A stretch of 61,728 nucleotides of DNA, filler included, from Hausera hauseri (lineage: Eukaryota), in the NCBI GenBank assembly GCA_046269625.1. It is 11 parts of 11 records of this genome, joined end to end, with 100 filler letters (N's around TTAATTAATTAA, not from the genome) between each part and the next. Parts side by side here need not be neighbours in the genome. Positions count along the whole stretch, not along the records: positions 54,696 to 61,728 come from JBJURY010042555.1; 10 more parts are not named here. One strand, written 5' to 3'. Position 1 is the stretch's first letter; every line of letters begins with the position of its first letter. The notes beneath the pieces were generated by a model. The model did not search any database and was not told where the DNA came from. It saw only the letters and a list, made by a program, of their open reading frames with translations. The translations under genes were made by a program, and so were the position numbers. Below are positions 29,030 to 61,728 of the stretch, one piece after another.

Positions 29030-29660
29030 ACTACTCTCCATGCAATCTGATATTTTGTTCAATAATGATTTTTCTGGTTTTGATCCTCCTTCTCCAACTA
29101 TATGGCCAAGGTAGGATACTGCATTTTGAGGCCATTTACATTTCTTCGGGTTTAATTTCAATCTTCTTCTGTTTTTGACGATACCATTACATCATCTAAA
29201 TATGCAAAGACATGGCCTTGTCCCATTAACATTTTGTTCATTATTCTTGTAAAAATAGCTGATCCGGTAGTAATACCGAAAGGCAGACGCTGAATTCATA
29301 AACGCCATTGTGTGTTTTGAATGCTGTTTTATATCGATCTTCGTCTTCAATTTCTACTTGCCAATACCCGGATAGTAAATCCAGAGTAGTGAACCATTAC
29401 GCTCCTGAGGGTCTATCTAGAGCCTCCTTTACTGATGGCAATGGGAAAGAATCTTCCATCATAAGATTATTTAATGCTCTTTAGCCAGTGCAGAATCGAT
29501 GTTTTGTAGTACCTTTTTTAACCTTGAGAATTGGTGAATACCAATATCTATAGCTGGGCCTAATAATATCGGCCTTAAGCATCCGTTCTACCCCTTTTGT
29601 TATCTTTGGTCCCAATGAATGAGGTGGAGGATACCATTTCCGCATCTTCTGATCCTCAAA
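29030..29660 (-). pseudogene. Reverse transcriptase, Ty3/Gypsy type
   Basis: FTTLDLLSGYWQV..DRYKTAF, LPFG, FAYLDD (29191-29202), LKLNPKKC..YLGHIV. Confidence 0.93.
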
Positions 29661-30129
29661 GTCTACTTCTTCATTCGAACCTGATTTTTTCTTAAGCGAA
29701 ATAATCACTTTTAATGTTTTTGCTTTACCGATATCTTTGTCGCCTTTAGCAATGATTGATTTATGGTGACACAGCTATTCATAAAATCGGTAGTAAGATT
29801 CAAGTAAACACTTAGTTTCAACATGAGGAGCATTATTTGCTATTCTGATCGGTACGCGACCGGATTGTACTCTTGTCAGTATATTACTGAGTATTATATT
29901 AGGATTTAATGCCTCCTTGGGTTCAAAATATAAAGGTTGATCGTCATTTTGTTGAATTTGCGCATAAATTATTATCGCTGTCCTCGGCAGAATATTTTCA
30001 TCTACTGGTATCCACACTTCTCCAAGTTTCCTATCCTTAGCCTTTTTTATGCCTTTATATTGTCTGATTTCTATTAATTTTCCTGCTTGCAAGTCAACTG
30101 CCATATTATGTAGTCTTTTCAGTAGATCA

Positions 30130-30410
30130 CACAATAGAACTACGTCGTCAGTTTATTGTTCCATAAATACAAATTATTGACAGAAAAGCTGTCCAACTAT
30201 TTGAATTTCTAGGTTCCATTTAAACATTGGTTTTGACATTTGGCCAAAAGATCCTGTACTTCCTGGGTCCATCGTAGATGGCGAATATAATTGTTCTCTT
30301 AGAGTTTGGGGTACTGAACCATTTTTAATGTAAGACATCTCAGAACCCGCATCGATTAATGCGTAAACTTCCCAGTCTTCAATAATGATTTTGGCGAAGG
30401 GTCTTCATAC
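30130..30410 (-). pseudogene. Aspartic protease
   Basis: RPFAKIIIEDWEVYALIDAGSEMSYI, catalytic Asp at 30351-30353. Confidence 0.85.
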
Positions 30411-30829
30411 TATTACTGTTCCAAAACAGTTCAATGCCGCTTTTGATCGTGTAGTTGCCGATATTTTATATCCATTGATTCAAATTTCCGGGGAGGATAC
30501 TATGTTTTCCGACAATTGTTTCCGTTTTCCGTTTGGATATAACTCATTGTTTCCGATGTCCAACTCTTCCGTTTCATGTGTACTAATTAATGGTTCTCGA
30601 TTGTTAGTTTGTGGTTCTATATTCCGGAAGGTTTGTAATCTTTGATTTCCCCAGACAGGCGGTCTAGCCTATATATTCCGAAGTTTTTTCGGAGACTACA
30701 ATATTCTGGGGTCATCCACGGGCTGTCAGTAACACATTTTCCGTAGGACTCCATAACGTTTTGTTCCTTCGTAAGGGTCTTCTAAACTAATTGTCATTTT
30801 ATAGATTTCTGTCTGATATGAACTCATTG

Positions 30830-31772
30830 ATCATTCGTCATCGTTTTGTGATACAATTCGGTTATTCCGACTTGCCCTTTATAACTGACGTAATCGTCTC
30901 GGTTTTTCAGGTAATCCTCAATCCGAAAATCCAGCGTTTCTAGCTTTTAAATATTCGCATTCATTTCCTTTTCGGCGACGATAAATACTTCATAATTAGT
31001 GGCGAACATCACCATTTCGCTGCGGGAGTTCATTTCTTAATAAATTTTAGTCCATACTGGTCGGCGGTCAATATAATAGGTGTATGGTGTTCTGCTATGT
31101 CCTCGCGTATCCTTGGTTAGTATCGGATTTATCTATAAATCGTTTTTCGATGGTTTCGATAAATTTCAATTCATTAATTTTGATAAAATTACAGCTTCTT
31201 CAAAAGGGAGGTTTCCATATTATTACAAAACTTCTGAAGGCACAGGTTCCATCTTGTAAATGGCATTTTTGATTCTCAATGTAATTTGGTGACACTATGG
31301 AACATTACTTTCTGTACCCGCATCTCCGATTTATAGAAACCTACGAACACTACATTCGATTCTAATCCTTTTCTGCTGTCGTATTCTGCTCAATTACAGT
31401 GTCCATTATGCATGTCTAGCCTTCCAACCACTACATTAAATGCTCTAATTATCTTTCCTGGTTGCATCTCTCATTCCATGCTATCCCATTTTACTCTTCC
31501 GGTTTCCCTGGCTTGCTTACAATGCTGGCGTTCCAAATTCACCGGGATTAAAGGCATCGTTGGCTTGATTATTGCATTAATCTACAGTGGAAAATGCTAC
31601 GGGACCGTCTCAACGTACATTCCATTCCATCCAAGGATATCAATTCTTGCTGTTTTCTTGTTTCCAGTTTGTGTGGTTTGGTGTCCTCGCATACTTTTAA
31701 ATCCATTAGAGAATATTTTGTCCTACTTATATGCTTCATTAATATCATCAAAGTGAGTAAGATAATTAACCA
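30830..31772 (-). pseudogene. env: N-terminal half of chuvirus-like glycoprotein
   Basis: Hydrophobic WLIILLTLMILMKHI, then SLMDLKVC..MECTLRRSRSIFHC..GQVGITELY; collinear with 55334-56352. Confidence 0.75.
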
Positions 31773-34700
31773 ATTAGATTCGCTTTTCCGGTTACTATTA
31801 TCCGTCGTTGTCAAATTGCGTAGCATATCTTCGAATCTATTTCTATTTCTAGAACGTTTGTCTTTTTCCTTATGGAATAGTCTCGACCAATTTACTTCGC
31901 AGAGTGGCTTTCTTGCAGCTCTTTGTGCTAAGATGGTAGCTATATTAATTTTATGCTCTCGACGGGGGTTTATTTTGAAATCTAAGTACAATAATACTTT
32001 TCTTAATTCTTCAGTGGTGTGTTCTACCGTGATCTTTTCGATCACCGATTCATAGGTTAACTTACTTTTTGATAGTTTAAAATGTGAACTTCTGATCATC
32101 TTAGCGGCACTGAATATCGCTCTATTTTTATTGTCTAATGGGTCGCCTCGAAGGCTTGAATAATTTACAATTCGTATTAAATTCTTCATTAATTCACTCA
32201 ATTCGTCATTGTCCGTGCCGAAGGTAGAAATCGACATCTGTCTTAATTCTCTAATCAACGCACCATTATAATCGGCTTCTTCTCTTGTTTTCTTAGGTCT
32301 ACCGACTGGGTGTTTCTGTCTTTGACATTGGTTATCGTTTCACTCAGGGGTACTAATTTCTTGTCGTATTGATTCTTGTCTTTATCCGTTTAAATATTCA
32401 AAACACATTGCAGCATCCCGGACTCCCATGATGTATCCTACACATTGTTCTGTCTTGGCCTTACGGGTGGCTTCTTCTTTAGTCTGTTCATTGGCTACTA
32501 TTACCACGATAGGATTTGATGCGTCGAGTATGATCTGAACGTCTATTGACTGTTCTAGATCGTCCAGTATTCTACCTCAAAAGTAGAATCTATAGTTTAG
32601 TTTATTCGTTCCACCATTGCTTATCAACCATTCTCTTACATCTCTCATGTAGGACTACGTAATTAATTCACATTCCTTTTCATCCATCCACTCGCATGAT
32701 ATTTTTACTTTCATCGTTACCTCGGGTATAGCCTTCACGATCTTAGCGTATTTCCATATTAAAAGTTTCGGCACCGCGCTAGAAATTGTGTTTTCACTAG
32801 ATAATTTAGTCAAAGTCGGAATGAGTTGTCTTAATTTGCTTTCGACAATGCTTACATTAATTAGTTCAATTAAATCCCTTTCAGTTAGCGCTGAATCCAG
32901 GAGCATCTCCACATTGAATCTTCTGTTATGTGGACACGTTTCTAATTCGTTTAGCTGTACCGGAGTCACAGAATTCTCGGCCGTTATTGCATCTAAATAC
33001 GCGTCCCATTCCGGTAAATTTCCAACGTCTGGAAGCCCATAGTCCGTCAACGTTGTGTTGAATCTGCACACATTTTCTCGGATTTCTTTCAATTTTTGCT
33101 GTATTTCTTTTATCTGCATAGTTAGGAAACCTATTCCGTTTCCACAGGCATAATGAATCATTTTCAGTAGTTTGGCTAGTTCTTTAGAATGGATGAGTCC
33201 CTTCTGGTGATAATGAGTTAGTTCCATGATTACATCTCTGCCATCTTGGCACCAATTCACGCTTATTTTTAATTTTGGACTCGGTAGAAGCATACTTTTT
33301 CCTATAAGTTTTAAGCTTTTTGGTTAATTCGTCTAACATTGTCGCTCTTTGTTTGGTTTTAATGCACGTTTCTTGGGCCTGTCGTATTTGAGGCATCCAT
33401 TGTCTCATCTTTTCATCAGTAATTTCTGTTATGTCTACTAAAAGAAAAGCTAGCTCATACATTTCATTAACGATTTTTGAGTCGGGATCTATCGCATCGA
33501 GCAATTTCTTTACGAACTTAGCTTCTGCAAAACTAAGATGAGGGTAGTTTCTTATTTTTTTCAACTTGGTATGACAGTTCTGATCTGTTCCAACCATACA
33601 TTCTTGTGGTTTATGTATGAATCTCATGGCTTCTTCCATAACCGTTTTATGTTCTGGACAGATATCTAAAGTTTCAATATCCTGGACAAAAATTTCGTCG
33701 GTAGACTTAGCTTTTAAATGTTGGATTCCTTCTAAACGGACATTCCTTATTCTTGGATAAAAATTGCAAGTCATATTCTGCTTTTTTGTGAAGTTTGTTT
33801 CTTCGATCATTTTATATATCTCTTCCAATATCGATACTTCTTGTTTCTTCTTCATAAAATTTAATCATCGTAATGCTTTGAATTGAGTCCGAATATCTAT
33901 TTCCGCTTGGATTGAATCTAAGTTACTGCACTTTCTTCTAATTGTTTCTTTACAGAAGGCTCCCTTTCTAGAAAATCTTACTAATTTACTTAGTCTCGCT
34001 GCTAATTTGGACTATTTATGCAGTTGATTCGCCATCACAGGTTTTACCAATATCGCCTTGTCTAGCAATTTATAAGCATCCTTTAATTCATCATCTGCAC
34101 ATTTTATGAAATTCATAATCCGGCTGACATAATCGAACTCATCCTTATATTCGTCAAATTCTATGATACAAGCCTTTATTACATACTTGGTTTCCGCGTT
34201 ATTCATAAACATAATTCGATTCCTCAAGCTACCAATTTATGTTCTCTTTTCATTCTCTATTTTAACACTATCCTCTAAATTCGCGCATTGCCTAGGCACA
34301 GCGAAGGAAATTTTTATCATTTCCATTAAAGGAGGAATGTCTACCGATTCTATAGCCAATATTTCTAAATCAATATCACTGCGATCGCAAACCGGTTTTA
34401 CTCTAAGTCGATTAATCATTGTACATCGAATTTCATCCATCAAGTGTTCTAAATTACGAACTACTCTCTATTTTTAGATTAGCTTCTAGTGTAGATAATA
34501 ACGTTTGAGCCTTGGCTACTTTCACATCAACACTATCTTTTCTTTTACTCCATCCTTCCGAGAATTTGACTCCACTTTTAATCCATCATTCTAATTCACG
34601 TTTCCATTTTATTAACGGTTGGTACCTCTTCAGGTTGTCCTAAATCGATTGCTTCATCGAGCTTTCCTTCACTGCATAATTTTAAACTTTTATGTAACCT

Positions 34701-35530
34701 CTCCGCAAATTGTTGCTCTTTTCCGCATATATCTACTTGTTTGTTAATCTGTTTAAGTCTTTCTAATTTTCATTTTCTTTAATACTTTGGCGTTTTTCCA
34801 CAAACGTCGAATTTTTTATTTTTTGGATCGAAATCATCAATATTTCGCGTTTCTTCCTCACTAGTGGGAAGTGGGCAAATCTCGTTAATATCGTTAACCG
34901 ACTCTACATATTCTTTTACTTCGATAGGTGTAAATTGACCAATTTGTGACGCATTTAAGGTAGGCTCTACGACACTCCCTACAGCGATGTTCGTATCTAT
35001 CGTTTCTTCTATCTGCTCTTTAGTTATTTGCGAACGTGAACGACTTCTACGTTTCGTTTTTAATAAAGGGCTGCGGCTTCTATTTTTCGTAATTTTAAGT
35101 ATTAATGGCTCCATAAATTCTTTTTCTTCTACCTCATCTTCGGTAACCTTGTCTACTTTTCCAACCTTGAACTCGGGCTCTGCATTTAAGTCGACTTCTG
35201 TCGAAGTTCCTGGTTTATCTGCTGTTCTATTACTTGTTAGCACACTCTTTTTCCGTGTCATATCAATTCGCTTTGGTGCTATCGCATATTCACATTCACT
35301 TTTTGTTTCTGCTAAACCATGATACACTTCTAATAGCCTTAATTTAACTGCGTATGTTTTAGCCATCAAAATTTGTGGGTTAATAGTCTCAGGCTGAGTA
35401 TCTAGAAAGTTTTGCAAATTTTGTATGTCGATAATAGTGCTCGTGTCTCCACGATCACCATACTTTACTTCCAAGTTTTTCTTCACTTTAAGCATACTAA
35501 TCTTATTAGGCTCAGTAAATGAAACGCTAC
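31773..35530 (-). pseudogene. Large unknown helical region X between gag and glycoprotein
   Basis: Chain of same-strand ORFs 34779..35675, 34237..34443, 34012..34227, 33184..33855, 32655..33293, 31569..32258 separated by stops and frameshifts. Confidence 0.65.
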
Positions 35531-36566
35531 GTGGATTGGGGTATGACCGTGCAATGCGTCCTTCTCCACCGCAGGTAAAATAAACTAAATTTCCATTTCT
35601 GCCGACTCTCTTCCGGCAGCCTCCATTCACAGGTGACTTGGACCTATTTGTGCTCCTATTGTCCTGGTTTGACAACCCTTGCGTAATATTACATTTCGCA
35701 GATTACTATTATTTTGACTATCCTCGTAACGATTTCGATAGTTAAAACCTTTATCCGTATTTGGATTCGACTTATTTGTATTTCGATTGTTAGCGTAATT
35801 ATTATTTCGGCTATTCCTGTAGTCGTTATTATTCCTATTTTCACAATTTCTACTTCCATTAAATCGCCTATCATCTCTTCCGCGATTATCGTTCAATTCT
35901 CATCGCCATGATCGTTCCGATTATTATTTCTATCATTTCTATCATTGTGTATGGTATACCTATCGAGTGTCATTTCTAAGTCTTGGACCAATTGCAGAGT
36001 TTTCTCGAAATTCTCAGGTCTGGCCAAAATCAACTTTTTAACTAAATCTCGGGACCAAATACCATTAATTAATTGAGTTGTCATTATGACGTCTAAATCT
36101 GGCGGAGTTGCCTTTTCCGAAGCATCGCGTTCTGCGTCAGTTTTAGCTTTTGCTACATTAGCTATCCTCAAGGTACTTACATAACTATTATCGAGTTTTT
36201 TAATGCAAATGCAAACTGGGTTACCTATTCACCCTTCTGTTGCACTCTACTTTGAAATGCCATAAGCTTCTGTTATGGAGTTACTGTCGGCAATAATTTA
36301 CGGTATAATGTTCCTACCAAGGAGGACCAAGATTTTTTTTCATCGTTGGTGAGTTCACTGTAAGCATCGGCGGCTAGATTCTTTAAATGTAATGATAAGC
36401 GTTTTATTGTTACTTCAGGAGTAAGACTAGCACCTTCTGCGTGCAATTTATAAGTTTTCAAGAATTCGTTAAGCCCGTCCGGGTCTCCGTCAGATGCCTG
36501 CAGGTTTAGAGAATCGAACGTGAAAATGTCCAACTTCTGCGCTACTGGTGGGTTATTTGCTGCCAT
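35530..36566 (-). pseudogene. gag: Gag: capsid, N/R-rich linker, degenerate CCHC knuckle
   Basis: LSLHLKNLAADAYSEL..SWSSLVGTL; RVQQKGE; QLINGI; knuckle YFTCGGEGRIARSYP at ~35540-35585. Confidence 0.85.
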
Positions 36567-36948
36567 ATTATTTACGTTATTTAGCTCTAAATTTGCTTTA
36601 TTTACTTTAGTTTACTCGAGTGGAATTTTAAACTGTTTATTTTGCGCGACAACGTCTAGTTTAATTCTATTCTCGGAATTTGAACGTTTATCTACCTTTT
36701 GTGTTTCTCTATATATATTTCGACGTGTCTCACGTATAGGTGAATTGTCTTTTAATATATGATTTATTTCTGACCTATCAATGTTTGTTCTCTCTTAAGT
36801 TCTGCTTACTTATCCCCGTAAAAATAGCCTATATACCCACATTTTAAATTCCGATTCTGAATAAATCAAGTTACTCGATGTGATGGCGCTGTTCGCAGGT
36901 ATGTAATTATTTAACTTTGATAAGTAAAGTCTAGCAAGGTACAGACTG

Positions 36949-36965
36949 TCCTGCTAGGGTCGTCA
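36949..36965 (-). promoter_or_regulatory. Primer-binding site, tRNA-Arg-like, degenerate
   Basis: TGACGACCCTAGCAGGA 2 nt inside the LTR end, resembling the complement of an invertebrate tRNA-Arg 3' end. Confidence 0.6.
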
Positions 36966-36967
36966 AA

Positions 36968-37728
36968 TGTTATATATTGGGGTAGCCCTACCCGTCTTCC
37001 ACTATATAACAGTAAGTTTCACTTAAAGTTAAGATTTTCTGTGCAGGTCGGTCTACCGTACTTGAATAGACAGACTGTACTCTAACGATTTAAAGATTAC
37101 TATTCTGGTATATGCGTGCGATCCTGTGCCAATAATTTTGAATAATTCTCACTCTTAACTATGTGATTTTACACTCTGATTTTAATCTTAATGTTGTCAA
37201 ATCACCCTTAAGGGGCGAAGGAAAACTATGGGTAATTTAGAAACAAGATAAACTTTACCGAATACTATAATTTCTGAAACGATAACACGAACTATAGAAT
37301 CACCAATTTGATAATAGTCAATAACTGAATTCTCGAACAAATGTTTCTCCAATAGTCAATAAATTTCAACTCACACGATCAATTAGACTCCAAAAATTTC
37401 TGATTCTGCCATGATTTTACAAGCCTTATATAGTTCTATCAGCTCGGGTAATTTCTTTTCGCCCACGTTTTCTGTTAATTTCTCAATAATTTGATTTATT
37501 TCAATGCCGATAATTCGCCAGAGCAATAACTAGTTTTCGATAATTTGACGTTTATAATTCATCAACGATAATTAAACTAACTAATATTTCTTTCTAATAA
37601 TATCTAATTTCTGTTCTTACTACAATTTTCTGTTTAATCAATCCGCTAATTCGCTATGTACAAATCTGCCATTTCGACTATTTACAATTTTGCCATTTCA
37701 CTATTGCATGATACCAGTTATTACAACA
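36968..37728 (-). repeat. 5' LTR of copy A (761 bp, TGTT...AACA)
   Basis: Shares start TGTTGT, internal CCCTTAAGG..GATTTGAC and end AGGGC.ACCCCAAT.TATAACA with the other LTRs. Confidence 0.88.
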
Positions 37729-37825
37729 TACCCACAAAATCAGTAAAATAAATTATGAAAGTGGTACTAAATCTTCTAGAGAAATAAATTGTGCAGAGGA
37801 TCAACATAAAAATTCGGCCGTCGAA

Positions 37826-38861: not shown

Positions 38862-38966
38862 AACCTGACAACTACAGAACAGGTTATTCTGTCATTCAAC
38901 AAAGAATTGGTTTTGGTTTAAAACAATCCTTTGTTGTAGGATTAACCTTTATATTCTTTTTTTCAG
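38862..38966 (+). promoter_or_regulatory. Two hairpins, branch point, polypyrimidine tract and splice acceptor (copy B)
   Basis: aacctg..caggtt; aacaaagaatt..aatcctttgtt; ttaac; ttctttttttcAG; conserved at 58499-58607. Confidence 0.7.
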
Positions 38967-38967
38967 A

Positions 38968-41386
38968 TTGGTAAGTAACCAGACCGAAATGGATAGTCGA
39001 ATTACTATCGACGAGTTCATGAAGACCCAGACAACAGTATTCATTCCCAAGTCAAAGTCGATCTACCGATTCATAAACGACGCTTTACGGGCAAAAACGC
39101 AAATTGAGATATTAAAAGTGAACGAAATCCCCAACGATCTTAAAACTATAACGGAAGAAAACCGGTTCGTTTACCTTTACGCCTGGAGAGAAAACGAACA
39201 AGCAAAGGCTTATTCTATGAAAGAATTGATTCGGAAACAACCAGACAAAATCCAAGAAGTCTATCTGCATCTGGCTGAAGGAGAGCTATATTATCGGATC
39301 AACAACCAACCTTGGAATTCCCAAGAGGGACGACAGTTCAGATTTAGCACGTTTAGATTTAAAGGGTCGAAAAGTATAGATTGCAATTTGGAATTTAGAG
39401 TAGCAGCTCTTCCTACCAAAATCATGATAGAAGTAACTTATAGAGAAAACGATAAACCCAGTTTGCCTATTCTGAAGTTCGATCAAATCCCAACAGAAGC
39501 AGAAATAGACGAACACTCTCAATCATACAGGATGGTAACAGACGGACGTAACGTGAGAATTCTAGCAACAAATTGTGGTAGAGGAGACGACGGATATGGA
39601 ATTCCTATCGAAATATCTGTTAGAGAAAGAGACGGAGCCGAACTATACTCCACTATTATAAATCCACGAAAACGAGTACAAGAGTCATACGTGGAGGTAA
39701 CAGGGCTAAGAAAAGAGCAGCTTATGAATGGAAAGGACATTAACCAAGTTCGTTATGAATTAGAGCATTGCCTCTACGGATGCATGATAGCAGGATATCA
39801 TGTACGGCAGGAAATAAAGCTATTAGGGATATCCGATGCAAATATTGCCGGATTTAGGGAAATAGCTGCCCATCCAGTGGTCCAGAAAAGGATGGAGGAA
39901 ACCGCAAAAGGCAGGAATCAGTCAACGGCGCCTGAAGCTTTTTTTAAATTGATGATAGAATCAATGATTCCCAACCCAAATAGAATTCCAAGATTTTTAT
40001 CGGCAAGACAACGATCCCGACACTTACAAGAAATTTACAAAATGCTGAAATGGGAACACGAATGGATACCTCAAAATCCCGAGTATAACCTACGATGTTC
40101 GCTAACACCTGAAGCAATCGATACCAGATACCGTCGGAACATCAAACCCTATTCTCCGGTTAGAACCGTTCAGCCAATAGGAGAAAACAGTCTCTCAGTT
40201 ACGATTCAGAAATCAATTGAAACAGGAAATAAAGAAGCTCAGCCACCGACGACGGGAAACCAATCAACAAGGATTGCAAAGAAACGAGACGAGCCCAAAA
40301 CGGAAATTTTAATTAAGAAACCTAAGTTAGAAGAGCAACCCAAACCCAAAAGAACCTTGTCCATTTATGACTATTTATTTAAGAAAAGGAAGGTAAACCC
40401 CGAACAAGAAATAGGAAGACAACAAGACAGGCCAGGTACATCAAGGAATATAAGTTCGGACGGAAAGAAATTTAAAAGCCCCGTAATAACCGAAATTAAC
40501 TCCTTAATCAAAAGGAAAGACAAAGGAGAGGTACATTATAAAACAGTTCAAGACTTTCCCAAAATGCTAGTAACTACGGAATATTATAGTAAAAAATGAT
40601 CAAGGAAGCGGTGTTCTATGTGAAGATGACACCGGCAAGAGAAGTCTTTGAAAACACGTACATTTTGGAAAACCCCAAACTGGGAAAATACCTCACATCA
40701 GTATTTTGCTCCAAAAGAACGGGGAAAATAGTAGTTTCCGTAGACAAGCAGATTAGGATTCTGCTAAAGAAACAATATCAAAAATATAAGGTAGAAGGAC
40801 AGATTCCCGATTTAGATCAAGAATTTATGGCGGATTGAACGTTAATCCAAGTAGATTGCGATCCGCGGAAAAGTTCAGTGAATCCCAAACAGAAAATAAT
40901 CCACGGATATCTATATCAAGATGGCGAAGGAATCACCTTTGAGCCAATCGAGTTAACCATTCAAGTCGATTTAGATCGAGACGATTGGGGAAAGAAGAAA
41001 ATGAATGCCCTGTATGCGAAGCCAATCTACAACAGAAATACGTAATACTAGATAATAAGAACTGCCGTCACAAGTATTGCAGAGATTGCTTGGAGAAATG
41101 GACCCTAGACAATGGGAAAACCACGTGTCCGGTATGCCGTGCGGAGGCTGCCGAGTTAAAATATTATTCAAACGGGAGCTACATTCGAGTGGTCAGAATA
41201 CAACCCCATTACAGTTATAACATTGAACCAAGACCTTCAACAAGTCAAGCTATATCAGACTCTCTATTGGACTTGCAAGAAAGAATGAACCAGTTAAGAG
41301 GAACGAGACAATTGGGCGCCATCTCTCCTGACGCAATAGGCACATCCGAGGATGTCGTTCAGGGAGGAGATGTTGTGAAAGACTAA
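38968..41386 (+). pseudogene. Accessory gene: N domain - inactive DEDDh (REX4/ISG20-like) exonuclease - linker - unknown domain - RING-HC finger
   Basis: 543-aa ORF (ILATNCG..LYSTIINP..VTGL..CMIAGY), 40596..40838 and RING CPVC..CRHKYCRDCLEKW..CPVC in 40985..41386; copy C reads through the 40596 break. Confidence 0.8.
41361..41370 (+). promoter_or_regulatory. Polypurine tract
   Basis: AGGGAGGAGA directly before LTR; same tract at 60781. Confidence 0.85.
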
Positions 41387-42171
41387 TTCTAATTCAACTC
41401 GAATCGATTATGAGAGAAAAACTAAATTGCTGTTGGCTTAGTTGATTGTGTACATATAATTCAAAATTGATTCATTGTAAATAGAATACAATTAGAAAAA
41501 ATTACGCGATATTTACAGCCATATAATGCAGTGCATTTTAATCAAAAAAATAAACAATGTTTTGAAATCGCGGAAATTGCCAAATAAATACCGATAATGA
41601 AAAATAAATTGAAAAAGCACCTGCTTCGAACTATAAATACGAGATCGAATGAGAAAGAAGGAGAACAATTTTTGATCGACTGTAGCGTCGGTTAAACCTG
41701 CGATTTTGAAACTTATTTGCGAAAAGTTTTTCCTCGACTGTAGTGTCGAACAGCTAGTTATTCATTGACTATAGAGTTGATTGGTGTTGTGAAGATTTCA
41801 GTGATCCATTCAGTGATATTCAACAGTGCTAAAGACATTCATTGATTGCTGTGATCCTTTGTGTTGGCTATTACATTGGTATATTATTGATCCTTTTCTA
41901 AATTCCCACTATAGTTTTTCATCGGCCCTTAAGGCTGATTTGACGACCGTAAGAAGTAAAATTTACTTAAACTCTTATAGGCACGAGAACGCTATTTAAC
42001 CGTTGCACAAGACACGACACGCAGTACACGCAGTTTTTTTTTAAAAATCAATATACATTGGCACATTCGTTTAACAAGAACGTTAAACCGAATCTGCATA
42101 AGAGACTAACTTCCAGAGTAAACTACTGTTATATAGCGGAAGATCGATAAGGGCCACCCCAATCTATAACA
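41371..42171 (+). repeat. 3' LTR of copy B (801 bp)
   Basis: TGTTGTG...CTATAACA, TATAAA ~41632, preceded by PPT, homologous to the other two LTRs. Confidence 0.9.
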
Positions 42172-46986: not shown

Positions 46987-49116
46987 ATCTTCAGCACAGT
47001 CCTCAAAGGAAAGGGCTTTCTGTGTAGAGGTTGAAGCTGCACTTGTGCTGGAATCTGAAAAGGAGCGTTATCTTTCAGTTACCCTGATGCACGCTCAATA
47101 ATCAGACTGAGGACGTCTTTCGGACAAAAGACGAAACGTTCCTACTTTTTTGTTGTTGTTTCTTTGAATGTCCAGAGGACCAGACTTAGCTTTTTTAGAT
47201 ATCTTTCAGCTACTTATTTCTTTATGGCTTCAGTATAATTTTAAGACAACAGATGAAGTAGCTGTGAAAATTATCCAAATACTGCAATCTATGCAACAAA
47301 CTGATATTTAAGGGTAAGTTGAAACAAACCTTTAAAGAACTCTGTATTTTTTGCACTCGCTTTTTCCTTCACTAGAAATGACAGCAGTGATGGAAGGGTC
47401 ACGGATGTCTGTTGTGTAGCTGCCAGGACTGTAGACAGTCAGAAGAAAGTAAACAAATGATTTCATGTAGCCTAAAAACATCAAGCATCAGATTTCTTTT
47501 CAGTAATATAATTTAAATTTCTTTACCGTTAACTGTTGAGGATTCTGATTCACCTGATGCACCTGAACACCTGGACACCGTTGCAGTTGGACCTAAATAA
47601 AGATAATGCATCAGTCACTGTATGAATCACAATTGAACACAACAGGTGGTGTTAGTGGAAACTCAAAAAGTTGTGCTTTCATTCCTTCTGCTTATCAGAC
47701 CTCTAAAAATATTTTTAAAGTAATTTCCAGAAGTGGGAAATGCAACAAACTACAAAGTGAACAACTGACTACCTCTATACTAGCTCTAAGCAGGAGAAAC
47801 AACAGCACTGAAGTGAACAAACATGTCAGCTGTTAGTAACTAGTATTGATTAAAAAAAAAAGTTAAACATGCAGAATATATACTCACCAGCATTCGGGTT
47901 GGCACAATATCTCCATCAATTCATAGTCCTTTGACTATTTAATGGGTGGCAAACAGCAATATTGTAACAGGAACATGACCGGAACGTGGCCAGAACACAA
48001 GAACACAATAGGTCAAGGATCAGTTTTGGAGGGTTATTCATCGTAAAAGAGAATAACACTCCAGTCCTGAAATCTCGTATTTGAAGAAAAACCTGTCTTT
48101 GCTCTGTTTGACACTGGGGTTCCCTCCGTTTCCGCTGACCCTGCATACACAGAGACAAATATGGGAGAGTGACTAAACACAAGCATATTATATTTTAGAA
48201 TGTCAGCAAGTGTAACTATAGTGTGCTTACTGCTCTGACTCAGGAGCTTAGAGGGTGAGATGCTTAGCATTGCAGCCTCCAATCCTTCGTCCTCCTCCAT
48301 CACTATGAGAAACCAAAAAATTATGTTATACAAAAATCAAGGATCAGTTTGGGAGGAATATTCAATTTTTAAGGCAATTTTTGTCCTTTCATCTTAAAAT
48401 TGTTCATACAACATTCTTAGTTGCTCACCCAGAGGTTTATGTGGCACACTGGATGGTGTGGGTGTATGAATGGAGGATGACTGCTGTTTCTTGAGCAGGT
48501 ACTGCTGCAGCTTCTTCATCCTGGTCCCAGGAAGGCAGATCGTCTTTAGGATGAAGTCAGCATAACCATCTTCTCTACTGTCCCAAATTTCCTTCCAAGT
48601 GCTCTTGGCCCGAGAGCCAAAACCAACCAGCTGGTCATCTTCAGAAGGAGTTACTGCAATGCTGTCTCTGCTGGCTTCATAGTCCAGGGCATCTTGTATC
48701 TCCTTAAAACTGAGAGCATACTTCACAAAGGTCAGGAGGTTCACCTTGTTAAGGCTCTCTGTGATACAGATGCCAGCTTCCTCCTCCTTTTGCAGGTTTT
48801 TGATGAGGTACAAAGTGTAACCCACATCATTTTCTAAAAGCCACCGGAAAGACTTCCCTTTGTATTTGCCAAATTGGAGGTTGTAGTCTCCCAGCACTTC
48901 TGAATCATCTGTGACATCCCCTCCTCTTTGACGAACTACAGACAAAGCATTTTGCCGCACAATGTCCTCTCTCTTTGGCTCAGATTTGTCCCGCACACTA
49001 GGATCATTTTTTATCATTTTGGCCTCAGGAGAGGGGTCCTGGCGAAGAAATCCAAGGGGTCCCTTGCGGAAAACAACACTTTGTTTTCCTGGATAAAAGA
49101 TTGCGGTCTTCTGCAT
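46987..49116 (-). CDS. Multi-exon uncharacterised teleost-type gene, probably transposon-derived; exons 49116-48429, 48302-48231, 48140-48093 and further small exons
   Basis: QFGKYKGKSFRWLLENDVGY motif plus a degenerate second copy; GT/AG sites join the first three exons in phase. Confidence 0.65.
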
Positions 49117-49420
49117 TTTGGCCTAGTAAGGAGCAAAAAAGGGTGGATCATGTGTTAAAGAAAATATCTGAAACCCTTTGAAATATATTTTGCATAAGAG
49201 TTGATTATTCAACGTACCGATAGTTCAAAAAGTTTCTATTTAAGGAAACAAATGTCTTTTCCATTCTGTTCATTTAGCTCTAAAGATCAAAAAGGTGCTC
49301 AAAGTGCAGCTAAAGACAGGAAGGACATAAAATATAATGATTTATCTGTTTTTATTTACTTGTACTATAATCAGATATCAGTGTTTCAGTATACACTCTC
49401 TGATATTATTATTATTTTAT

Positions 49421-50744: not shown

Positions 50745-51060
50745 GGTCAGCGCCAGGAACAACATACTGTCCAAGACCTTTCAACAGTTCTTCGTAATGT
50801 GTCCTGGAGACAGAAGCAATTCTGGCCAACGTTGGGCGAATCGACATGGTCCCCAGTTGAGAGGTGAATCACTTCTAGGAGGTCAAGCATTGTACTAAAG
50901 CCTGGAGGACGTTTGTCCACCCCCCTAGACAACACTAGGACAGCAAGGATGCTCAACAAAACTACTCCTGAGTCCTTCTTAGGACTACTACCCTTATCAG
51001 GGCTCATCCAGATGAACTGACGCTCGGTGATGACGAGATAAAACAAAGAACAAACAAGGG
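50745..51060 (+). repeat. 3' end of non-LTR retrotransposon, copy 1
   Basis: Homologous to 51619-51930 and 54062-54271; degenerate T.QH.L..CP knuckle, twin hairpins, A/C-rich tail. Confidence 0.7.
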
Positions 51061-51618: not shown

Positions 51619-51930
51619 ATGTTGTTGTTGTTGGATGTCCTCATCGCCGAGTGTCAGCGCTTATGGATGAGCCCTGATAAGGGCTGTAGTCCTAAGAAGG
51701 ACTCAGGAGTAGTTGTGTTGTGTATTCCTGCTGTCTCAGTGGAGTCTAGTAGGGTGGACCGGGGTCCTCCAGGCTTTAGTGCGATGCTTGACCTCCTAGA
51801 ATTGATCCACTTCTCAACTTGGGGACTGTGGACGATCCTTCCAACGTTGGCCAAAACTGCTTCTGTTTCCAGGACGCACTACGAGGAAGTGTTGGAAGGT
51901 CTTGGCCCGTATGTTGGTTCCTGGCTCTGA
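51619..51930 (-). repeat. 3' end of non-LTR retrotransposon, copy 2
   Basis: Reverse complement of 50745-51040 with (CAA)n tail. Confidence 0.7.
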
Positions 51931-52949
51931 CGAGATCAGGAAGCGATCTCAAGTCTCACCGTCCCACTCATATAGGGACCGTGATACATCACCTATCGCA
52001 ACCACATTTCACTACCGACAAGGTCATTGCATCATCTGCACAAGTCGAAAGACATGGCGTCGAACCTGCTGCCAAGAGGCGCCCTCTCGCAGTGACAGAA
52101 ACATAAACCAACCAATGAGTAGCATCCCCAGCTAGTATCATCGTTAGACTCGATAACATCATCAACTCAAAGGCTGTTTCATCAAATTAATCATTTTATG
52201 TAGTGTGTAACTTTGTTGATTAAATTATTACTTAAAAATGTTATCCTCGTGAAAGTGACCAAAATATTTTTTTTTTTTTTAAATTGACGAGCACTGGTGT
52301 AAAAGGTTAAACGCGCGACGTAATTTCTTGATTGATCGTTATTTCCCCGTGTGCTTCATAAAACTGGACTGGGCGTTTATTTTGACAATTAGAGAGATGA
52401 GCATGAAGCCAAAATTAACCCGAATTCTGGGGTTAATGGAATCGACATCACCATGGCTTGGCAAATTATTCTTCGATAATCAAGTCGGAATTAACAGGTA
52501 ATATACTGCAGGTGGTTTATTGCTTGCTGGAGCCATAAATTGAATTAGATACTGGCTAGTCCTGATGGATTCGTCTAGACCAGGTAGCGTCCACGATTTA
52601 TTGGAAATGTTGCGTTATAAAGCTTCAGCGACAAGGTGGGATTGATTTGGAAGAGATAACCAACACGGAGAGAAATGGCGGAAAGAAAAGAAACATGGCG
52701 GATGGGGGAAAAATAAAGACACATCAATGAGAGAACTCCGGAAGTTCATTAACTACCGTTTGTGCGGGATGACACAGCAGCTCGATGATTGGTTGAAGTA
52801 ATAACAGAGGTATGCGGTCAATGGCGGCACAGGTGGAAACAAAATGGACTGGAGCCGACATGTCGCTGCCAAAATGTTTGTTGTGGTCGTCGTCAAGGTT
52901 ATTATATTGCTATCATTATGGCTTCAGTTGTTATCTTTAGACAGCCTAA

Positions 52950-54061: not shown

Positions 54062-54271
54062 TATGTCCCCAGTTGAGAGGTAGATCACTTCTAGGAGGCC
54101 AAGTATTGCACTAAAGCCTGGAGGACCCAGGTTCACCTTATTAGACTCCACTGGGACAGAAGGAATGCTCAACACAACTACTCCGGAGTCCTTCTTAGGA
54201 CTACAGCCCTTATCAGGGCTCATCCAGAGGAGCTGATGCTCAGCGATGAGGAGATCCAACAACAACAACAA
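54062..54271 (+). repeat. 3' end of non-LTR retrotransposon, copy 3
   Basis: Same twin-hairpin sequence and (CAA)n tail. Confidence 0.7.
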
Positions 54272-54695: not shown

Positions 54696-55333
54696 AGTCC
54701 GAGATGCTGCAATGTATTTCGAGTATTTACAAACGGATGAGGACAAGGAACAATACGACAAGAATTTAGTGCCACTGAGTGGAATAATAGCCAATTTTCC
54801 AAGGCCGAAACGCCCAGTCAACAGGCCTAAGAAGGCGCGAGAAGAAGTTGACTATAACGGAGAATTGATTAGAGAGTTTAGACAAATGTCGATTTTAATG
54901 AAGAATTAAACGAATTAATGAAGAATTTAATACGCATTGTAAATTATTCAAGACTTCGAGGTGACACATTAGATGATAAAGAAAAAGCAATATTCAATGT
55001 AGCTAGAATGATGAAAGTTCACGTTTCAAGTTATCAAAAATTAACTTAACCCATGAATTGGTAATCGAAAAGATCATGGTAGAAAACATCAATGAAGAAT
55101 TAAGAAAAGTATTACTATAGTTAGCTATCAAAATAAACCCTGATCGAGAGAATGAAATTAATAGAGCTACAAGCTTATCACGAAGAGCGGCAAGAAAGCT
55201 AACCTGCGAAGTAAATTGGTCGAGACTATTCGACAAGGAAGAAGACAAACGGTTCGGTAATAGTAATAGACTCGAGGATATGTTACGTAATTAGGTAACA
55301 ACCGGTAATAATAATCGGAAAAACGAATCAAGT
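54696..55333 (+). pseudogene. C-terminal part of unknown region X
   Basis: VRDAAMYFEYL..QYDKNLVPLS..DYNGELIREFRQMS..LMKNLIRIVNYS matches 31773-32425. Confidence 0.75.
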
Positions 55334-56932
55334 TGGCTAATCAGCTTACTCACCTTGAGTATACTAATAAAGCACATATGAGCTATTACCGTCTATGACT
55401 GCGATAAGTTTAAACTAGGGCAGAGATATTCCATAATGGATTTAAAAGTGTGCGAAGATTCCAAGCCGCACAAGTTATAAACGAAAGACAAAAATTATTT
55501 TCTGTACCAACAACAAGAATTGATATTACTAGATGGAATGGAATGTATGCCGAGACAATCTCGTAGCATTTTTCACTGTGAAATAATACACGGACATTCT
55601 TCAATAATCAAACCAACAACTCCTCAAATTCCTATGAACTTAAAACACCAGCACTGCAAGCAGGCTAAGGAGACCGGAAGAGTGCAATGGGACAGTATGG
55701 AATTAGAAATGTAACCAGGAAAGATAATTAGGGCGTACAAGGTTGTGGTCGGAAGGTTAGACATGCATAACGTATATTATAACAAAGCGGAATACGACAC
55801 GGGAAAAGGATTACAAGCAAAGGTAGTGGTCGTGGATTTCTATGAACGAGAGATGCGAGCACAGAAAGTAATGTTCCATAGTGTCACCAAACTATATACC
55901 GAGAATCAGAAATGTCATTTACATGACGTAACCTGTGCTTTTAGAAGTTCTGTTATAATGTGGGTACCTCCCTCTGGAAGAAGCTGTAATTTTATCAAAA
56001 TTAAGGAATTAAAGTTTAATGAAACTACCGGAAAGTGATATGTGGATAAATCTGATACAAACTCAAGGACACGCGAAGACGTATCAGAACATCCCACGCC
56101 CACTATATTAATCTCTGATCAGCATGGACTAAACTTTATTAAGAAAGAAATGATTTCTCGTTGTAAAGTGGTGATGATCGCTACTAACCATAAGGCGTTT
56201 TTCGTCGCCGAGACAGAAATAAATGCCAAGAATTACAAGTTAGAAACGCAAGATATCCGAATTGAGGATTATCTGAAAAACACAGACGATTACTTACATT
56301 ACAAAGGGCAAGTCGGAACAACCAAGTTATATCTTAAAATGATAACAAATGATTGTAAATTGGATTCCTATATGAGAAGGAATTTTGGTCGAGTTACCGA
56401 CGAAGTACTATTGACTTACGAATGTGAGAAAAGTGATATACCAATCAACTTTGAAGAAAAACGCTGCATGCAGAAACTTCCCGTTATTTACCAGAATATT
56501 ACAAGGTTAGCTATGCCACACACTATGGTGCTATTAAACAATGCAAATGAACCTACAATCCATAAGGATTGTAAAGCAAGCTTAGAAGAACCCATGTTTA
56601 GACGCAGTGAAACAGATTGTGTTAGTTTGCCAAATGGAGGTATTACTGCCGCTCCAAAAAATTAACAGAAACAAATCTTGCAAAAGGAATTACAAAAGAC
56701 AAATTTCAAGGCACCTCGTCAAAAGACATATATAGGCCTAAGGAAATCGAAGCCTTCAGACAATTCCTCGCTTTTCCGCGACAGGAGACACACAAATTAA
56801 ACCGAGCCATAGCCTCCGTAGTAGACGATACTCGATATCAGGCTAAATGGGAATCTTTGCTTGGCGTAAATCATTATCAGCGAGTAACCACATAAATACT
56901 CTACAAAATTTGGGGAAGATTTTTGATTTTTG
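55334..56932 (+). pseudogene. env: Chuvirus-like (class III, gB-type) envelope glycoprotein, truncated just before the TM anchor
   Basis: Signal peptide, VYDC, C..RQSRSIFHC...GHSS, WVPP..SC, ATNH, KLY..ITNDCKL, YEC..RC..KLPV.Y.N, IY....EAFRQFLAFP, KIWGRFLIF; one frame to 56665 with point stops. Confidence 0.78.
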
Positions 56933-57086
56933 ACCGTACGAAGTTACCAGAGCTACGCCAACCACAGTATACACCAACACTAATGGAAAGGAAGAGGTCA
57001 TGTCAGTACAAAGAGTTGTGAAGACGGAGATATGGCCCAATAAACGTTACAATTTACGCCAACGCGAGATAAAACTTCCTCAATAA
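56933..57086 (+). pseudogene. Integrase C-terminal GPY/SH3-like tail
   Basis: PYEVTRATPTTVYTNTNGKEEVMSVQRVVK..RYNLRQR. Confidence 0.65.
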
Positions 57087-57099
57087 TTGCTAGACCAAT

Positions 57100-58455
57100 A
57101 TCATATGTTCAGATAGTTTTAGCATTATCGTTAATTGCTTCTTATATCCTGAGAACAAAAGCTCAATGATGGGACGATGAAACTACGCTAGGAGATGTTT
57201 ACGGAATTCGAAAGAGCGGATCAAGGTCGAAAGTTATTAAAACGGAAAAGAAACGAACAGTCGAAGAAATGCAAAACAAGAAGACACAAAGTTCTTAAAA
57301 TCAATGACGATTCATTACTTTTAGCCAGACACTATGTGCGTCGGATTTAAAACTTGGAGACCTCATCGCAATTTCGGAAGATTTCAAATTTTCCCATATG
57401 ATGTAACAACAAAAGAAGTAAAAAACTGTGACCTTGAACTCGGAGATTATTTTCAGTGCTGCGACGTAGATTTTGAACATGTTTACATCCTTTCTTATCG
57501 AGTGTTCTTACCAGTCTCATCAGAAATCTATATGGAAGTAAACCCACAAAATGTGTTGATTATTCCATCTTGGCCCGGGCGATTCGGAAGGAAGCCCGAT
57601 GAAATTCTACAGTTCACCAACCCATATATAAGGCAATTAGATGAAAATATCAAAGGAATCGCGGTAAACCAGGAAAAACAATGCATTCAAATAGATGCTC
57701 GAACAGGATTAACTTTTAGTCAAGAAATTAGTATCATTTTCGAAGCAGTGAACGGAAAAACCCCGAGAATAAATTACTGTTCTGTTCATGCCGGTATGCA
57801 ACGCCCATGTTGTAAGTTACCAGTAAACCAAGAATTCGAAATAAAATTCGACTTATATGAAGTAAGACCGAATAAACCGAGCAAACATTTGCGGACTTAC
57901 TATACGAAAAATAGAGTATTGAGGATTCCAGTAGAAACGATTACCAAAAGGCCAATTACTCGAGTTAGTGCCATTACGAGACCGGCTACGTCGAGCAGTG
58001 TCCCTAAAAGAGAACTAGGAAGCATACCTATTAAATATTCGACGCATCGATCTAAAATTGTGTTCTTTGTAGAAGAAAAACAAATTTACGATATACACAT
58101 AAGTTGCCGAACAACCCATAATAATCACATTGTAACATTACTTAAAAGCACTTATCAGACAGAATGTTGTTTGTTGAAACCGCAATCTGATTACATAGTA
58201 CAAATAAATGCAGAAGATAAACAAAACCAAACAATTACATTACGTACCTTGGACAAATTTCGTGCAGAATCGCATACATATGAAAATATAGACGATGAAA
58301 TCACAACTCCACTCACCATACAAGCACCACTGAGATTAACCACTTTACCGATCGTATCTATTTTTGTAATGTTAACGTTTGTTCTCATTATACTAATTGC
58401 GATTTTTCTGTTAGTTTTCAAAAACTATTATTCCAAGCGTCCTAACATTACATAA
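57100..58455 (+). CDS. Type I membrane protein with FN3-like domain; signal peptide ~57100-57170 disconnected from the 373-aa ORF 57334..58455
   Basis: YVQIVLALSLIASYILRTKAQ; LKPQSDYIVQINA resembles FN3 L.P.T.Y.V.V.A; TM IVSIFVMLTFVLIILIAIFLLVF. Confidence 0.65.
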
Positions 58456-58498
58456 TTGGAACTAACGGAATTGGAAACCCCTATTGTTCCGTATGATA

Positions 58499-58607
58499 AA
58501 ATAACCTGACAACTACAGATCGGGTTATTCTATCATCTAACAAAGAATTAGTTTCATTTTAAAATCATCCTTTGTTTTAAGATTAACTTTTACTGTTTAT
58601 TTTTTAG
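58499..58607 (+). promoter_or_regulatory. Two hairpins, branch point, polypyrimidine tract and splice acceptor (copy C)
   Basis: aataacctga..tcgggttatt; aacaaagaat..atcctttgtt; ttaac; tttttttAG. Confidence 0.7.
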
Positions 58608-60790
58608 ACCGATAAGTAAAGAGAGAAATACGAAAACGGATACCGCACGACCTAGGATCGACGGACCACGATCTATCCAAGAACGAGAACGATGTAGTAT
58701 CGATAAATTACCAAAACGCCGACTTAGTATTGACAAGTTCTTGCAGAATTACGCTACCGTGTTTCTCCCAAATTCTAAATCAATATATAATTCTGTCAAC
58801 AACCGTCAGAAAAGGATTTGGACACATTCCTACAATCGTATAGACTAGTGAAAATGTCAGAAATACCAGAATCGTAGCAATCAATTGTGGAGGAGGAGAT
58901 GGCGCACGAAGGATTCCAATGGAAGTCTTAGTTCGAGAAACGAACGGAACAGAAATATATTGTACGATTATCAGCCCGAGAAAATGCGTTCGCGAGACAT
59001 ACTTTGATACGACAGGAATTCGTAAGGAAACACTCTTGAAAGGTAGAGATATCAAACTTGTTCAGGCAGAGTTAGAACATTGTTTATACGGATATATTAT
59101 AAGTGGATATCGCATCGATATCATTGTCGAACTCTTAGAAATACCCATGTCAAGCATCGTAGAAATGCGCGAGATAAGATTACATCCAGTAGTCGCCGAG
59201 CAGAACAAACGAATATTGCGAGAAAGGAATTACCCCGCACCAAAAGTAATGGATGCCTATTTCAAATTAATGGTCGACGCCATGAATAGCGAACATGTTA
59301 AGATTATCAAACTGTTAATCGCACGTCAACAAACTCAATACTTGAGAGACATTTACGTAGCTTTAAAATGGGGCCATGAGTGGACACCCAGTAATCCAGA
59401 ACAAAATTTAAGAAGTACATCCGAACCAGAAACTATGAACAAAAAGTATCGGAAGCAGTATTGTTCGTATTATTTGTGTAGAGTCGTGGAACACATGGGA
59501 CAGGATATAATCAAAATAACTATTCGGAAATTAGATCAATCGTGCACTGATGTGCCAAGCACCAGCTATGGTTCTCATATCAAACCAATTTAAGAAATAA
59601 AATCTACAATCAAGGAAATAGAAGCAATTCAGACATTCAAAGTACCCAAAATTCCACCAAAAAATAGAAAGTTGGAACACAAATTTTCTTAATCAAAAGA
59701 AAATTATCCATCTATAATTACTTGTTCAAAAAGAAAAATAAAGGAACAAGCTCAAACCAAGCTCAAGAAGACCGAACCGATAAAACGAACGAAGAACCCG
59801 AAATTTCAGAGATAGCAAGAGAAATTCTTACGACGTCCACAAATGACCAAATGGCAATCCCAGAAAAACCCAAGAGAAAAACATACAAGCACAAGAACCT
59901 AGTGAGCGGATATCAACAACTGTTCACTGAAGTAAATATCCTAAGAAAAAGGAATTCCCAAGAATATGTACATTTTGCAACAACTAAGGATTACCCAAAG
60001 ATGCTAATAACTACCGAGTATTATAGTCATCAGAAAATTAAAGAAGCGATGTTTTTCGTTAAGACCACACCAGCTCGAGAAGTATACGAAAATACCTACA
60101 TTTTGGAAAATCCTAAAATAGGAAGGTATATTGCACCAGTTTTCCAATCGAAAAGAAACGGCAAGTTAACAGTGCCAGTAAATAAACAAATGAAAACAGT
60201 ATCAGAAGTATCAAACGCATGGCGAAATTCCCGATTTAGATCGAGATACCATCGCCGATTGGATCTTAGTACCAGTAGGTTGTGACCCCAAAAAGAGTTC
60301 TGTAAACCCTAAACAAAAGAGAATCCATGGTTACCTATATCAAGATAAAGATGGTCTCATATTCGAACCTATAGAGCTCACAATAAGAGTAGATTTAGAC
60401 GATGAGAAATGGGATAAAGAGGAAAACGAATGCCAAGTATGTGAAGCACATATCAGTAAAGGATACGTTGTTTTGAATAACCGTGATTGCCGACACAAAT
60501 AGTGCGAGATTGCTTGGAAAAATGGACCCTAGATAATGGCAATACCACCTGTCCGGTGTGTAGAGCCGAAGCAACTAAACTGAAATACTTTTCGAACGGT
60601 AGTTACACCCGTGTAGTTCGAATAAAACCCCATTACAGTTATGAATTGGAAACGAATCCCCGAGAAACCCAGCCAAATACGGACTCAGAAGTGAGCTTAC
60701 GTAGACGAATAAATCTCCTAAGACAACCACGTTATGGCGTACCTCTCCTGATGCAATGGGCACATCCAAGGATGCCGCTCAGGGAGGAGA
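58608..60790 (+). pseudogene. Accessory pseudo-exonuclease-RING gene, copy C, internally deleted and frameshifted
   Basis: VFLPNSKSIY; IVAINCG..IYCTIISP..TTGI..ELEHCLYG; PKMLITTEYYS..TPAREVYENTYILENP; CQVC..CRHK..DCLEKW..CPVC. Confidence 0.8.
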
Positions 60791-60792
60791 AA
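60781..60792 (+). promoter_or_regulatory. Polypurine tract
   Basis: AGGGAGGAGAAA before LTR. Confidence 0.85.
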
Positions 60793-61728
60793 TGTTGTAA
60801 AGACGTTCAGAAAGATGTAAGACGTCCAAATTGTAAATACTATTATAAGCAGCATATTGTAAATATTTATTATTTTATAATATTTTCCATTATTGTACAA
60901 ACTTAAGAATTTGTACAAATATAAAGAAGGAATTTAGCAATAATTTGATATATTTTTAGAAAATTAGGAAAAAGCATTGAATTTATTAATTTTTAAATCA
61001 GAAAATACTGAAAAATTCAGCTAAACTATTTACAATTCCAAGAATATAAAATAAAATTAGTCACGTATGCAGTTGCATTAGTATATAAGCAAGTAGCAGA
61101 TATGAAATTTTTGAGTTGTTTGAAAGTTTATTCGAAGTTTTATTTGAGAATTATTTGAGATTACTCGAACTTCATTAGAGAAGTTTTCAATTGAGTTTAT
61201 TTGCGATGTTGAAAAGTCGTTGAAGATATTTGAAAGTTATTGCAAAGACGATATTCAGAAGCTTCCTTAACAGAGATAATTTCGAGAAATTAAATTGAAG
61301 AAGCATTGCAGAAGAGTTCCAGAAGTTTTCGAAAAAGCATCGAGAATTATTGTCGGGTTGCGAAATAGATTCCTGAAACAGTTCATTTCATCTTCAATTC
61401 CGATACCGGAGGTGTATCCAAGATGACGTAATTGTTGTTATTGTAAAAATATACTTGTTATTCTAAAATTCTTATATAGTTTCTCATTGCCCCTTAAGGG
61501 GGATTTGACTACACTAAGGTCTTCAATTCTACTGTAAAATTATATAGTTAAGAGGAGAATTTGTTAAACATTTTGCACAAGACCGCTAGCGAGTACCAGC
61601 ATTATTGATTAAACTAATTGTTATAAGGTACAATCTGTCTATTCGATAACGGTAGACCTTACCTGCATTAAGGTACTCAAATCTCAAGTGTAATTATTGT
61701 TATATAGTGGGAGTTGTATAAGGGCCAC
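60793..61728 (+). repeat. 3' LTR of copy C, last ~14 nt cut off by window end
   Basis: TGTTGTAAAGAC start; CCCTTAAGGGGGATTTGAC ~61490; ends TGTTATATAG..AGGGCCAC like the other LTRs. Confidence 0.88.

Follow-up and report, generated by a model that had tools for sequence, protein, structure and literature searches.

How did a glycoprotein gene of negative-strand RNA virus type come to lie in a retrotransposon of Hausera hauseri, and was it taken from a virus by this lineage or inherited with an older element? The window analysed, a stretch of 61,728 nucleotides from assembly GCA_046269625.1, consists of 11 contigs with N-spacers between them, and there is no physical linkage from contig to contig. 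It includes three related copies of an LTR element, designated A, B and C (Table 1). A nucleotide alignment of copies A and C (32424-30830 vs 54696-56353) gives 75.6% identity across 1,675 bases, and all three are diverged subfamilies rather than recent duplicates. The best explanation of the locus, held with moderate confidence, is that the gene is the broken env of a multicopy Ty3/gypsy element, likely a Burro-like flatworm errantivirus of gag-env-pol type, with an Env predicted to have been of the gB type.

Table 1. Features of copies A, B and C, in positions of the window.
Feature	Position	Strand	Basis or remark
Copy A	28931-38761	-	contig with a relative of copy C
5' LTR, copy A (TG...CA)	36968..37728	-	motif positions, alignment to B/C LTR ends; 5' edge is a best guess
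gag, copy A (capsid; single degenerate zinc knuckle, near 35580)	35250..36566	-	weak PDB matches
Broken polyprotein, gag-to-env, copy A (about 1,150 codons)	31775..35249	-	translations
env front part, copy A	30830..31774	-	75.6% identity to C, stopping abruptly at 30830
pol piece, copy A (410 bases, protease, spacer, RT)	29040..30829	-	RVT_1 E 4.8e-7, RVP E 0.0035
Copy B	38862..42171	+	3' part of a related element; 65-79% nucleotide identity to C in four blocks
Copy B content: exonuclease-like domain in a 576-codon ORF; RING; polypurine tract; entire 3' LTR			3' LTR at 41371-42171
Copy C	54696-61728	+	last contig, holds the glycoprotein gene
Polyprotein remnant running into env, copy C	54697..55330	+	homologous to copy A 32424-31775; no family assigned
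env pseudogene, copy C	55331..57298	+	PF24664 matches, hydropathy, stops
Signal-like hydrophobic segment, env C	55331-55396	+	hydropathy
Motif YDC	55394		55334 frame
Motif C..R.IFHC...HSS	55544-55603		55334 frame
Motif W.PP..SC	55961		55334 frame
Motif LY...NDC.L	56327		55334 frame
Motif C..LPV.Y.N	56465		55334 frame
Motif IY...FLAFP	56728		other frame
Motif KIWGRFLIF	56905		other frame
Membrane anchor helix, env C	57080-57154	+	hydropathy; short tail after, end stop 57296-57298
376-codon stop-free ORF, predicted single-pass membrane protein, copy C	57325..58455	+	ORF list, hydropathy 3.45
Exonuclease-like domain (DEDD-type), copy C	58628..59593	+	43% identical to copy B
RING finger region, broken, copy C	60373..60732	+	49% identical to copy B 40943-41383
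Polypurine tract, copy C	60782-60790	+	same tract in copy B at 41362
3' LTR, copy C, cut by the contig end	60793-61728	+	TG start as in copy B 41371

Read with X at its stops, the segment 55334-56692 matches a sole Pfam family, Monjiviricetes_fusion (PF24664), with 55.8 bits against a curated cut-off of 27 (E 2.8e-15). The match resumes weakly in the next frame (56677-57096, E 0.021); the first frame covers profile positions 7-344 and the second 473-548, of 653, and a stop-free piece, 56039-56662, clears the cut-off alone (28.9 bits vs 27). This significant match of a stop-corrected translation confirms the glycoprotein of negative-strand RNA virus type that the preliminary description had recognised from seven motifs; the sequence has all seven, with five read in the 55334 frame and the other two in a different one. 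A gene does lie within the bounds given at first, 55334..56932, but it continues to 57298 and its membrane helix lies beyond them. The span of about 655 codons, with hydrophobic segments at both ends, is as expected for PF24664 proteins (about 650 residues), and the ectodomain is cysteine-rich, with 14 cysteines in 55382-56692. Judged by this profile, the product is a Monjiviricetes (chuvirus-like) fusion glycoprotein, and for Env a gB-type (class III) mode of fusion is predicted. A sequence search of the PDB gave no match for env, homologues were found in none of 1,723 candidates, and no credible related locus was found, viral contigs included. The ESM Atlas returned only matches under 0.8, and a single-sequence fold model of env reached a pLDDT of 31. 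A jumbo-phage gene among the viral contigs (L001, E 1e-4) was rejected as a chance match.

Copy C env is interrupted by seven stops (55379, 55478, 55712, 56036, 56663, 56893 and 57167) and two frame changes (near 56670-56720 and 56940-57070), and therefore gives no protein. The earlier suggestion of a possibly infectious element does not hold for these copies, since A and C are both broken. Over 287 codon pairs, env of A and C differs with a dN of 0.14 and a dS of 0.99 (dN/dS 0.14, bootstrap 0.09-0.21), and the differences at codon positions 1, 2 and 3 number 49, 41 and 98. Off-frame readings of the same block, taken as a control, give 0.95 and 1.08; a control on the LTR ends is noisy (0.40-2.14 on about 60 codons), so the off-frame readings serve better. 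Env was therefore under purifying selection, and both lines retained it as a protein until decay; we infer its past function from this selection only.

The frame of env reaches further upstream. In copy A the region ahead of env, the hydrophobic segment and the beginning of env share a single stop-free frame (32339-31572). The breaks of the block shared by A and C fall at different places, a break in one copy mostly facing open sequence in the other, which is the pattern that a once-continuous frame would give. The translations thus point to an env that was formerly part of a polyprotein, and in copy A the frame appears to have run unbroken from env back to gag, now interrupted by decay. A separate env start, at a methionine about 20 codons ahead of the hydrophobic segment, is possible. 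Between A and C the stretch ahead of env has a dN/dS of 0.40 (0.20-0.88). The gag-env polyprotein of copy A includes ubiquitin-like (32490-32720) and Bcl-2-like (31800-32339) stretches, recognised by eye only. Neither was supported by Pfam, the PDB, the Atlas or a second single-sequence fold model (pLDDT 35); the Bcl-2-like stretch has no matches in the ESM Atlas, and its PDB match to an HP0242 chimera (E 0.0004) was rejected as a helical-repeat artefact.

The retrotransposon class follows from copy A, whose order is LTR-gag-long polyprotein-env-(junction)-PR-spacer-RT, with PR ahead of RT and the contig ending after RT. Its RT has Ty3 RT as best PDB match (E 1.1e-18). Relatives number 39 among 1,991 candidates, and all 39 are gypsy-type Pols with gypsy-type domain sets. 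The BEL/Pao marker domains Peptidase_A17 and DUF1759 occur in none of the 39 and in none of the scanned window pieces. No env was found in these 39 relatives by a search that reached 2,000 residues, below the size of the Burro polyprotein. Copy A gag matches no Pfam gag family, and three of its four PDB matches are dArc2/dArc1 capsids, all weak (E 0.092-1.5). The element is a Ty3/gypsy and not a BEL/Pao retrotransposon, as proposed at the outset, and the tie between RT and env crosses a junction specific to one copy. The RT that the preliminary description regarded as linked is indeed of Ty3/gypsy type, but it does not stand beside this env: LDLLSGYWQV (29384) and YLDD (29202) are on the minus strand of the other contig, 28931-38761, in copy A.

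Further observations concern the surroundings of these genes. Directly behind the gag knuckle (35250-35531, minus strand), a protease-like motif with an altered catalytic triad was seen by eye only; it has no Pfam or PDB match, and if real it would give the family two protease-like domains. At 28931-29258 the depth is at least 13-fold that of the adjacent bins in both runs, which marks either a very common repeat or a conserved RT end, located where the contig stops. Upstream of the copy A LTR and on the opposite strand (38311-38760, plus) lies an ISG20/REX4-like exonuclease ORF (PDB 1wlj E 2.3e-5, RNase_T E 1.4e-4), which lacks the first catalytic motif and is 21% identical to the exonuclease-like domain of copy B (E 3e-6). 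A-richness flips at this ORF, and it is therefore probably a distant relative placed head-to-head with copy A.

Two DNA runs, from two studies, carry the family, and one of them may be the source sample; the runs listed are DNA only, with no RNA run among them. Every one of the 30 bins of copy A is covered in each run, through thousands of diverged contigs (19,312 and 995), and the depths of the runs over copy A are not taken as copy numbers. The element is a multicopy retrotransposon of an animal, probably a flatworm, judged by its likeness to flatworm elements. The other contigs of the window are of mixed content. A different, C-rich gypsy pol (RT, RNase H, integrase) lies at 1-4050 (plus), its RT 33% identical to that of copy A. 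An intron-free eIF4E ORF (Pfam E 4.5e-48) shares a contig with Endonuclease VII-like pieces and, by eye, pieces of a polinton-type polymerase (23039-23593 and 26716-28738, both minus). An unbroken 486-codon ORF without a convincing family (20472-21932, minus) adjoins a Tc1-type transposase (18999-19862), and a repeat of 200-300 bases is present in three copies (50746-51046, 51620-51931, 54065-54270), in both orientations, at 83-89% identity. A 242-codon ORF (48394-49122, minus) has a weak C-terminal ExoX-like match (E 1.5e-4) and resembles fish transposon proteins, so its contig may derive from another organism. No tRNA gene for a primer-site comparison was found in the window.

The joint at 30830 bears on whether copy A carries the element's own pol. 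Among the 16 pieces listed of 715, none has 31 letters on both sides of it, and pieces depart from copy A from both sides at 30825-30846. This env-pol joint is peculiar to copy A, so the pol piece could be another element's. Env and gypsy family would then be the same, with a pol brought in by nested insertion and later deletion, or by a template switch, and the element's own pol upstream or missing. Such a reading is unlikely, though it agrees with several observations: neither B nor C has a match to the 410 bases ahead of the copy A protease (best E 1.3-2.0), and B and C have no pol ahead of the 3' LTR. A second seam is possible after gag at 35345-35357, where two of the pieces listed depart from copy A with 65 and 79 unaligned letters and one contig has just 1-2 extra letters; one X2 joint, from 34344 to 30589, can be read as pol preceding the polyprotein. 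Against a foreign pol, other copies are gapless over 34823-35345 and 35357-35609, among the pieces listed, and so also have no pol right after most of this stretch; one X1 contig connects gag (36043) with the pol piece (30080); and the pol piece and env are alike in A-richness (A 0.37-0.39). All contig joints over copy A rest on an alignment at 85% likeness and are weak, and a joint from 29018 to 32852 was rejected, with 22 letters on one side and within a very high-depth bin. Gag-env-pol is moreover the published flatworm order, and it is the fairly probable order here.

Copy C presents a different problem, since no pol was found between its env and 3' LTR (54696-61728). The ORF that follows begins less than 30 bases past the env stop; it has a C-terminal helix at about 58324-58437, matches no Pfam family, is single copy within the window and could encode a second surface protein. 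It is unbroken, while env of the same copy has nine breaks. The exonuclease assignment is indirect: the domain of copy B weakly matches the PolC, SDN1 and ISG20L2 exonucleases in the PDB (E 0.25-1.4) and matches the ISG20-like ORF at 38311-38760, and homologues of the region were found in none of 661 candidates. Between B and C the domain has a dN/dS of 0.15 with dS saturated; neither copy keeps the first catalytic motif unchanged, and the nuclease is likely inactive. The RING assignment comes from copy B 40943-41383 (zf-RING_2, E 1.8e-9). At the end of the element, 61461-61728 of copy C is 68-72% identical to the LTR ends of A and B. Alignment among the copies is confined to the final 250-270 bases of each LTR and fails for the remainder. 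A 45-base stretch at the LTR ends (36968-37011, minus; 42127-42171, plus; 61698-61728, plus), which begins TGTTATATAG and ends TATAACA, resembles a miniature LTR. No published description was found of a tail set of membrane protein, likely dead exonuclease and RING placed after env without pol. The unusual features are these tail genes, likely accessory, and the absence of pol behind env in this copy.

Copy C could accordingly be read as a stable subfamily without pol, copied in trans by pol-bearing relatives and with its env under selection. The contig has no pol ahead of its 3' LTR, the distance from the env stop to the following ORF is small for a chance deletion, the 376-codon ORF is unbroken, and the tail genes of B and C are under purifying selection (dN/dS 0.15 and lower). 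However, the env-tail join is known in one copy only, copy B starts after the critical joint (at the equivalent of copy C 58503), and the selection seen between A and C could wholly predate the loss of pol. Such a subfamily is improbable; if maintained, it would give an invertebrate a retrovirus-like system that depends on a helper. Slightly less probable again is a Burro-like family split into a pol-less form under selection, with gag, gB-type env and a host-control cassette of membrane protein and dead exonuclease-RING ligase, and pol-bearing suppliers of enzymes; this would amount to an endogenous retrovirus in two parts, in a host that is not a vertebrate.

The origin of env is best judged against published elements. 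As far as the available text of PMC13524379 goes, 114 gypsy elements were found there with a mosquito BEL/Pao chuvirus-like glycoprotein as bait, gag-env-pol elements with a gB-type env occur in nematodes, bryozoans and flatworms, and an ancient acquisition and inheritance of env is argued; the nine flatworm elements of its supplement are all of gB type. The planarian Burro likewise has a mononegavirus-like env in frame between gag and pol (PMC6431247, available text), and gypsy fragments beside Jingchuvirales-type glycoproteins have been noted in insects (PMC7642597, PMC10084718, in the parts available). The pairing of gypsy and chuvirus-like glycoprotein, which the preliminary description treated as unusual, is already in print, so the env of copy C is one more example. 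About 65 of the 229 sequence rows in the supplement of PMC13524379 were compared by eye, which is not a computed result. Among these rows the Schmidtea C1a Envs are closest, followed by the three insect C1 Envs, whereas those of nematodes, bryozoans, branchiopods and cnidarians are far from copy C. Also by eye, domain I-II of copy C has seven of the eight cysteines found in the six C1a Envs of Schmidtea, with their order kept and their spacing similar, and shares with them the motifs Y-Q, T-P-T, F-I-K-K and T-N-[YH]; FIKK occurs in one of the 229 rows, a Schmidtea one.

An independent capture of a chuvirus glycoprotein by this gypsy lineage, as first proposed and here taken as fairly recent, is very improbable: the sole family match does rest on negative-strand RNA virus fusion proteins, and six separate endogenisations of Jingchuvirales glycoproteins are counted in the available text of PMC10084718, but the pairing is published, the likeness to Schmidtea errantivirus Envs is motif for motif (by eye), dS is near 1 between two copies in one genome, no close viral relative is found among the 1,723 candidates or the viral contigs, and there is the published case for ancient inheritance. 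Most likely env was inherited from an old stock of gB-type errantiviruses and not newly acquired from a chuvirus.

If the element is such an errantivirus, Env would have been made within one long Gag-linked polyprotein, in which the internal hydrophobic segment would route Env into the ER, where signal peptidase would free it. The helix at its end would anchor Env, as trimers, on budding particles, which could then fuse with neighbouring host cells, by analogy to the Env of gypsy in Drosophila. On this reading both A and C would be internally deleted descendants, A having lost the back of env and C having lost pol, and this mechanism cannot operate from either of them. As accessory cargo, the tail genes may act on RNA or on ubiquitin pathways of the host; a dead nuclease beside a RING is predicted to suit RNA binding coupled to ubiquitin tagging.

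The closest described systems are Schmidtea errantivirus 1-6 (group C1a), which are likewise Ty3/gypsy elements with a gB-type env in gag-env-pol order in flatworms (PMC13524379, available text). These are intact, with three annotated ORFs, whereas copies A and C are broken. The main text of PMC13524379 has no mention of Burro; we infer that its Schmidtea errantiviruses are Burro, a link not drawn in that main text, which would connect the literatures on Burro and on gB-type errantiviruses.

Burro itself, by the available account in PMC6431247, is ordered Gag, ubiquitin-like, Bcl-2-like, env, PR, dUTPase-like spacer and RT. Burro/GYPSM1 shares with the present element a Gag heading a long polyprotein, a mononegavirus-type env in frame and before protease-RT, accessory ORFs with ubiquitin-related domains, and very many copies, some of them decayed. 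An env in frame with the upstream polyprotein is seen in copy A (32339-31572), where env also precedes PR-RT, across the copy-specific junction, while copy C has no pol behind env. A dUTPase-like resemblance between PR and RT of copy A (29790-30059) was noted by eye, and like the ubiquitin-like and Bcl-2-like stretches it lies where Burro has such a domain, without support from any of the searches. The differences are that gag-to-env here takes about 1,150 codons and the LTR about 0.8-0.9 kb, that one knuckle is seen instead of two or three, that BIR, ankyrin and MATH are not seen, and that a tail comprising a membrane protein, an exonuclease-like domain and a RING, in a copy without pol behind env, is not described for Burro in that account. 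Burro exceeds 30 kb in length (PMC6431247), and the contigs here are 6-10 kb. From its sequence, the env-bearing element probably is Burro-like, working like a gB-type errantivirus and laid out like Burro; a Burro-like layout with different cargo suggests that these giant elements are a wider and more varied group than the planarian ones described.

Two other systems share single features. Anakin of mosquitoes is also an LTR retrotransposon that spreads a chuvirus-like glycoprotein, but it is BEL/Pao (PMC7642597, available text), whereas the present element has a gypsy-type RT and gag, with its env joined to a polyprotein upstream. Three zinc knuckles are a BEL/Pao (Anakin) trait, against the one seen here. 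Juno and Vesta of bdelloid rotifers are gypsy-type elements that also have a DEDD-family exonuclease as extra cargo; their DEDDy ORF3 is RNase D-like, keeps its catalytic residues and stands in place of env (PMC5408684, available text). By contrast, the nuclease in the present element is ISG20/REX4-like, lacks the first motif and is located behind env, with a RING downstream.
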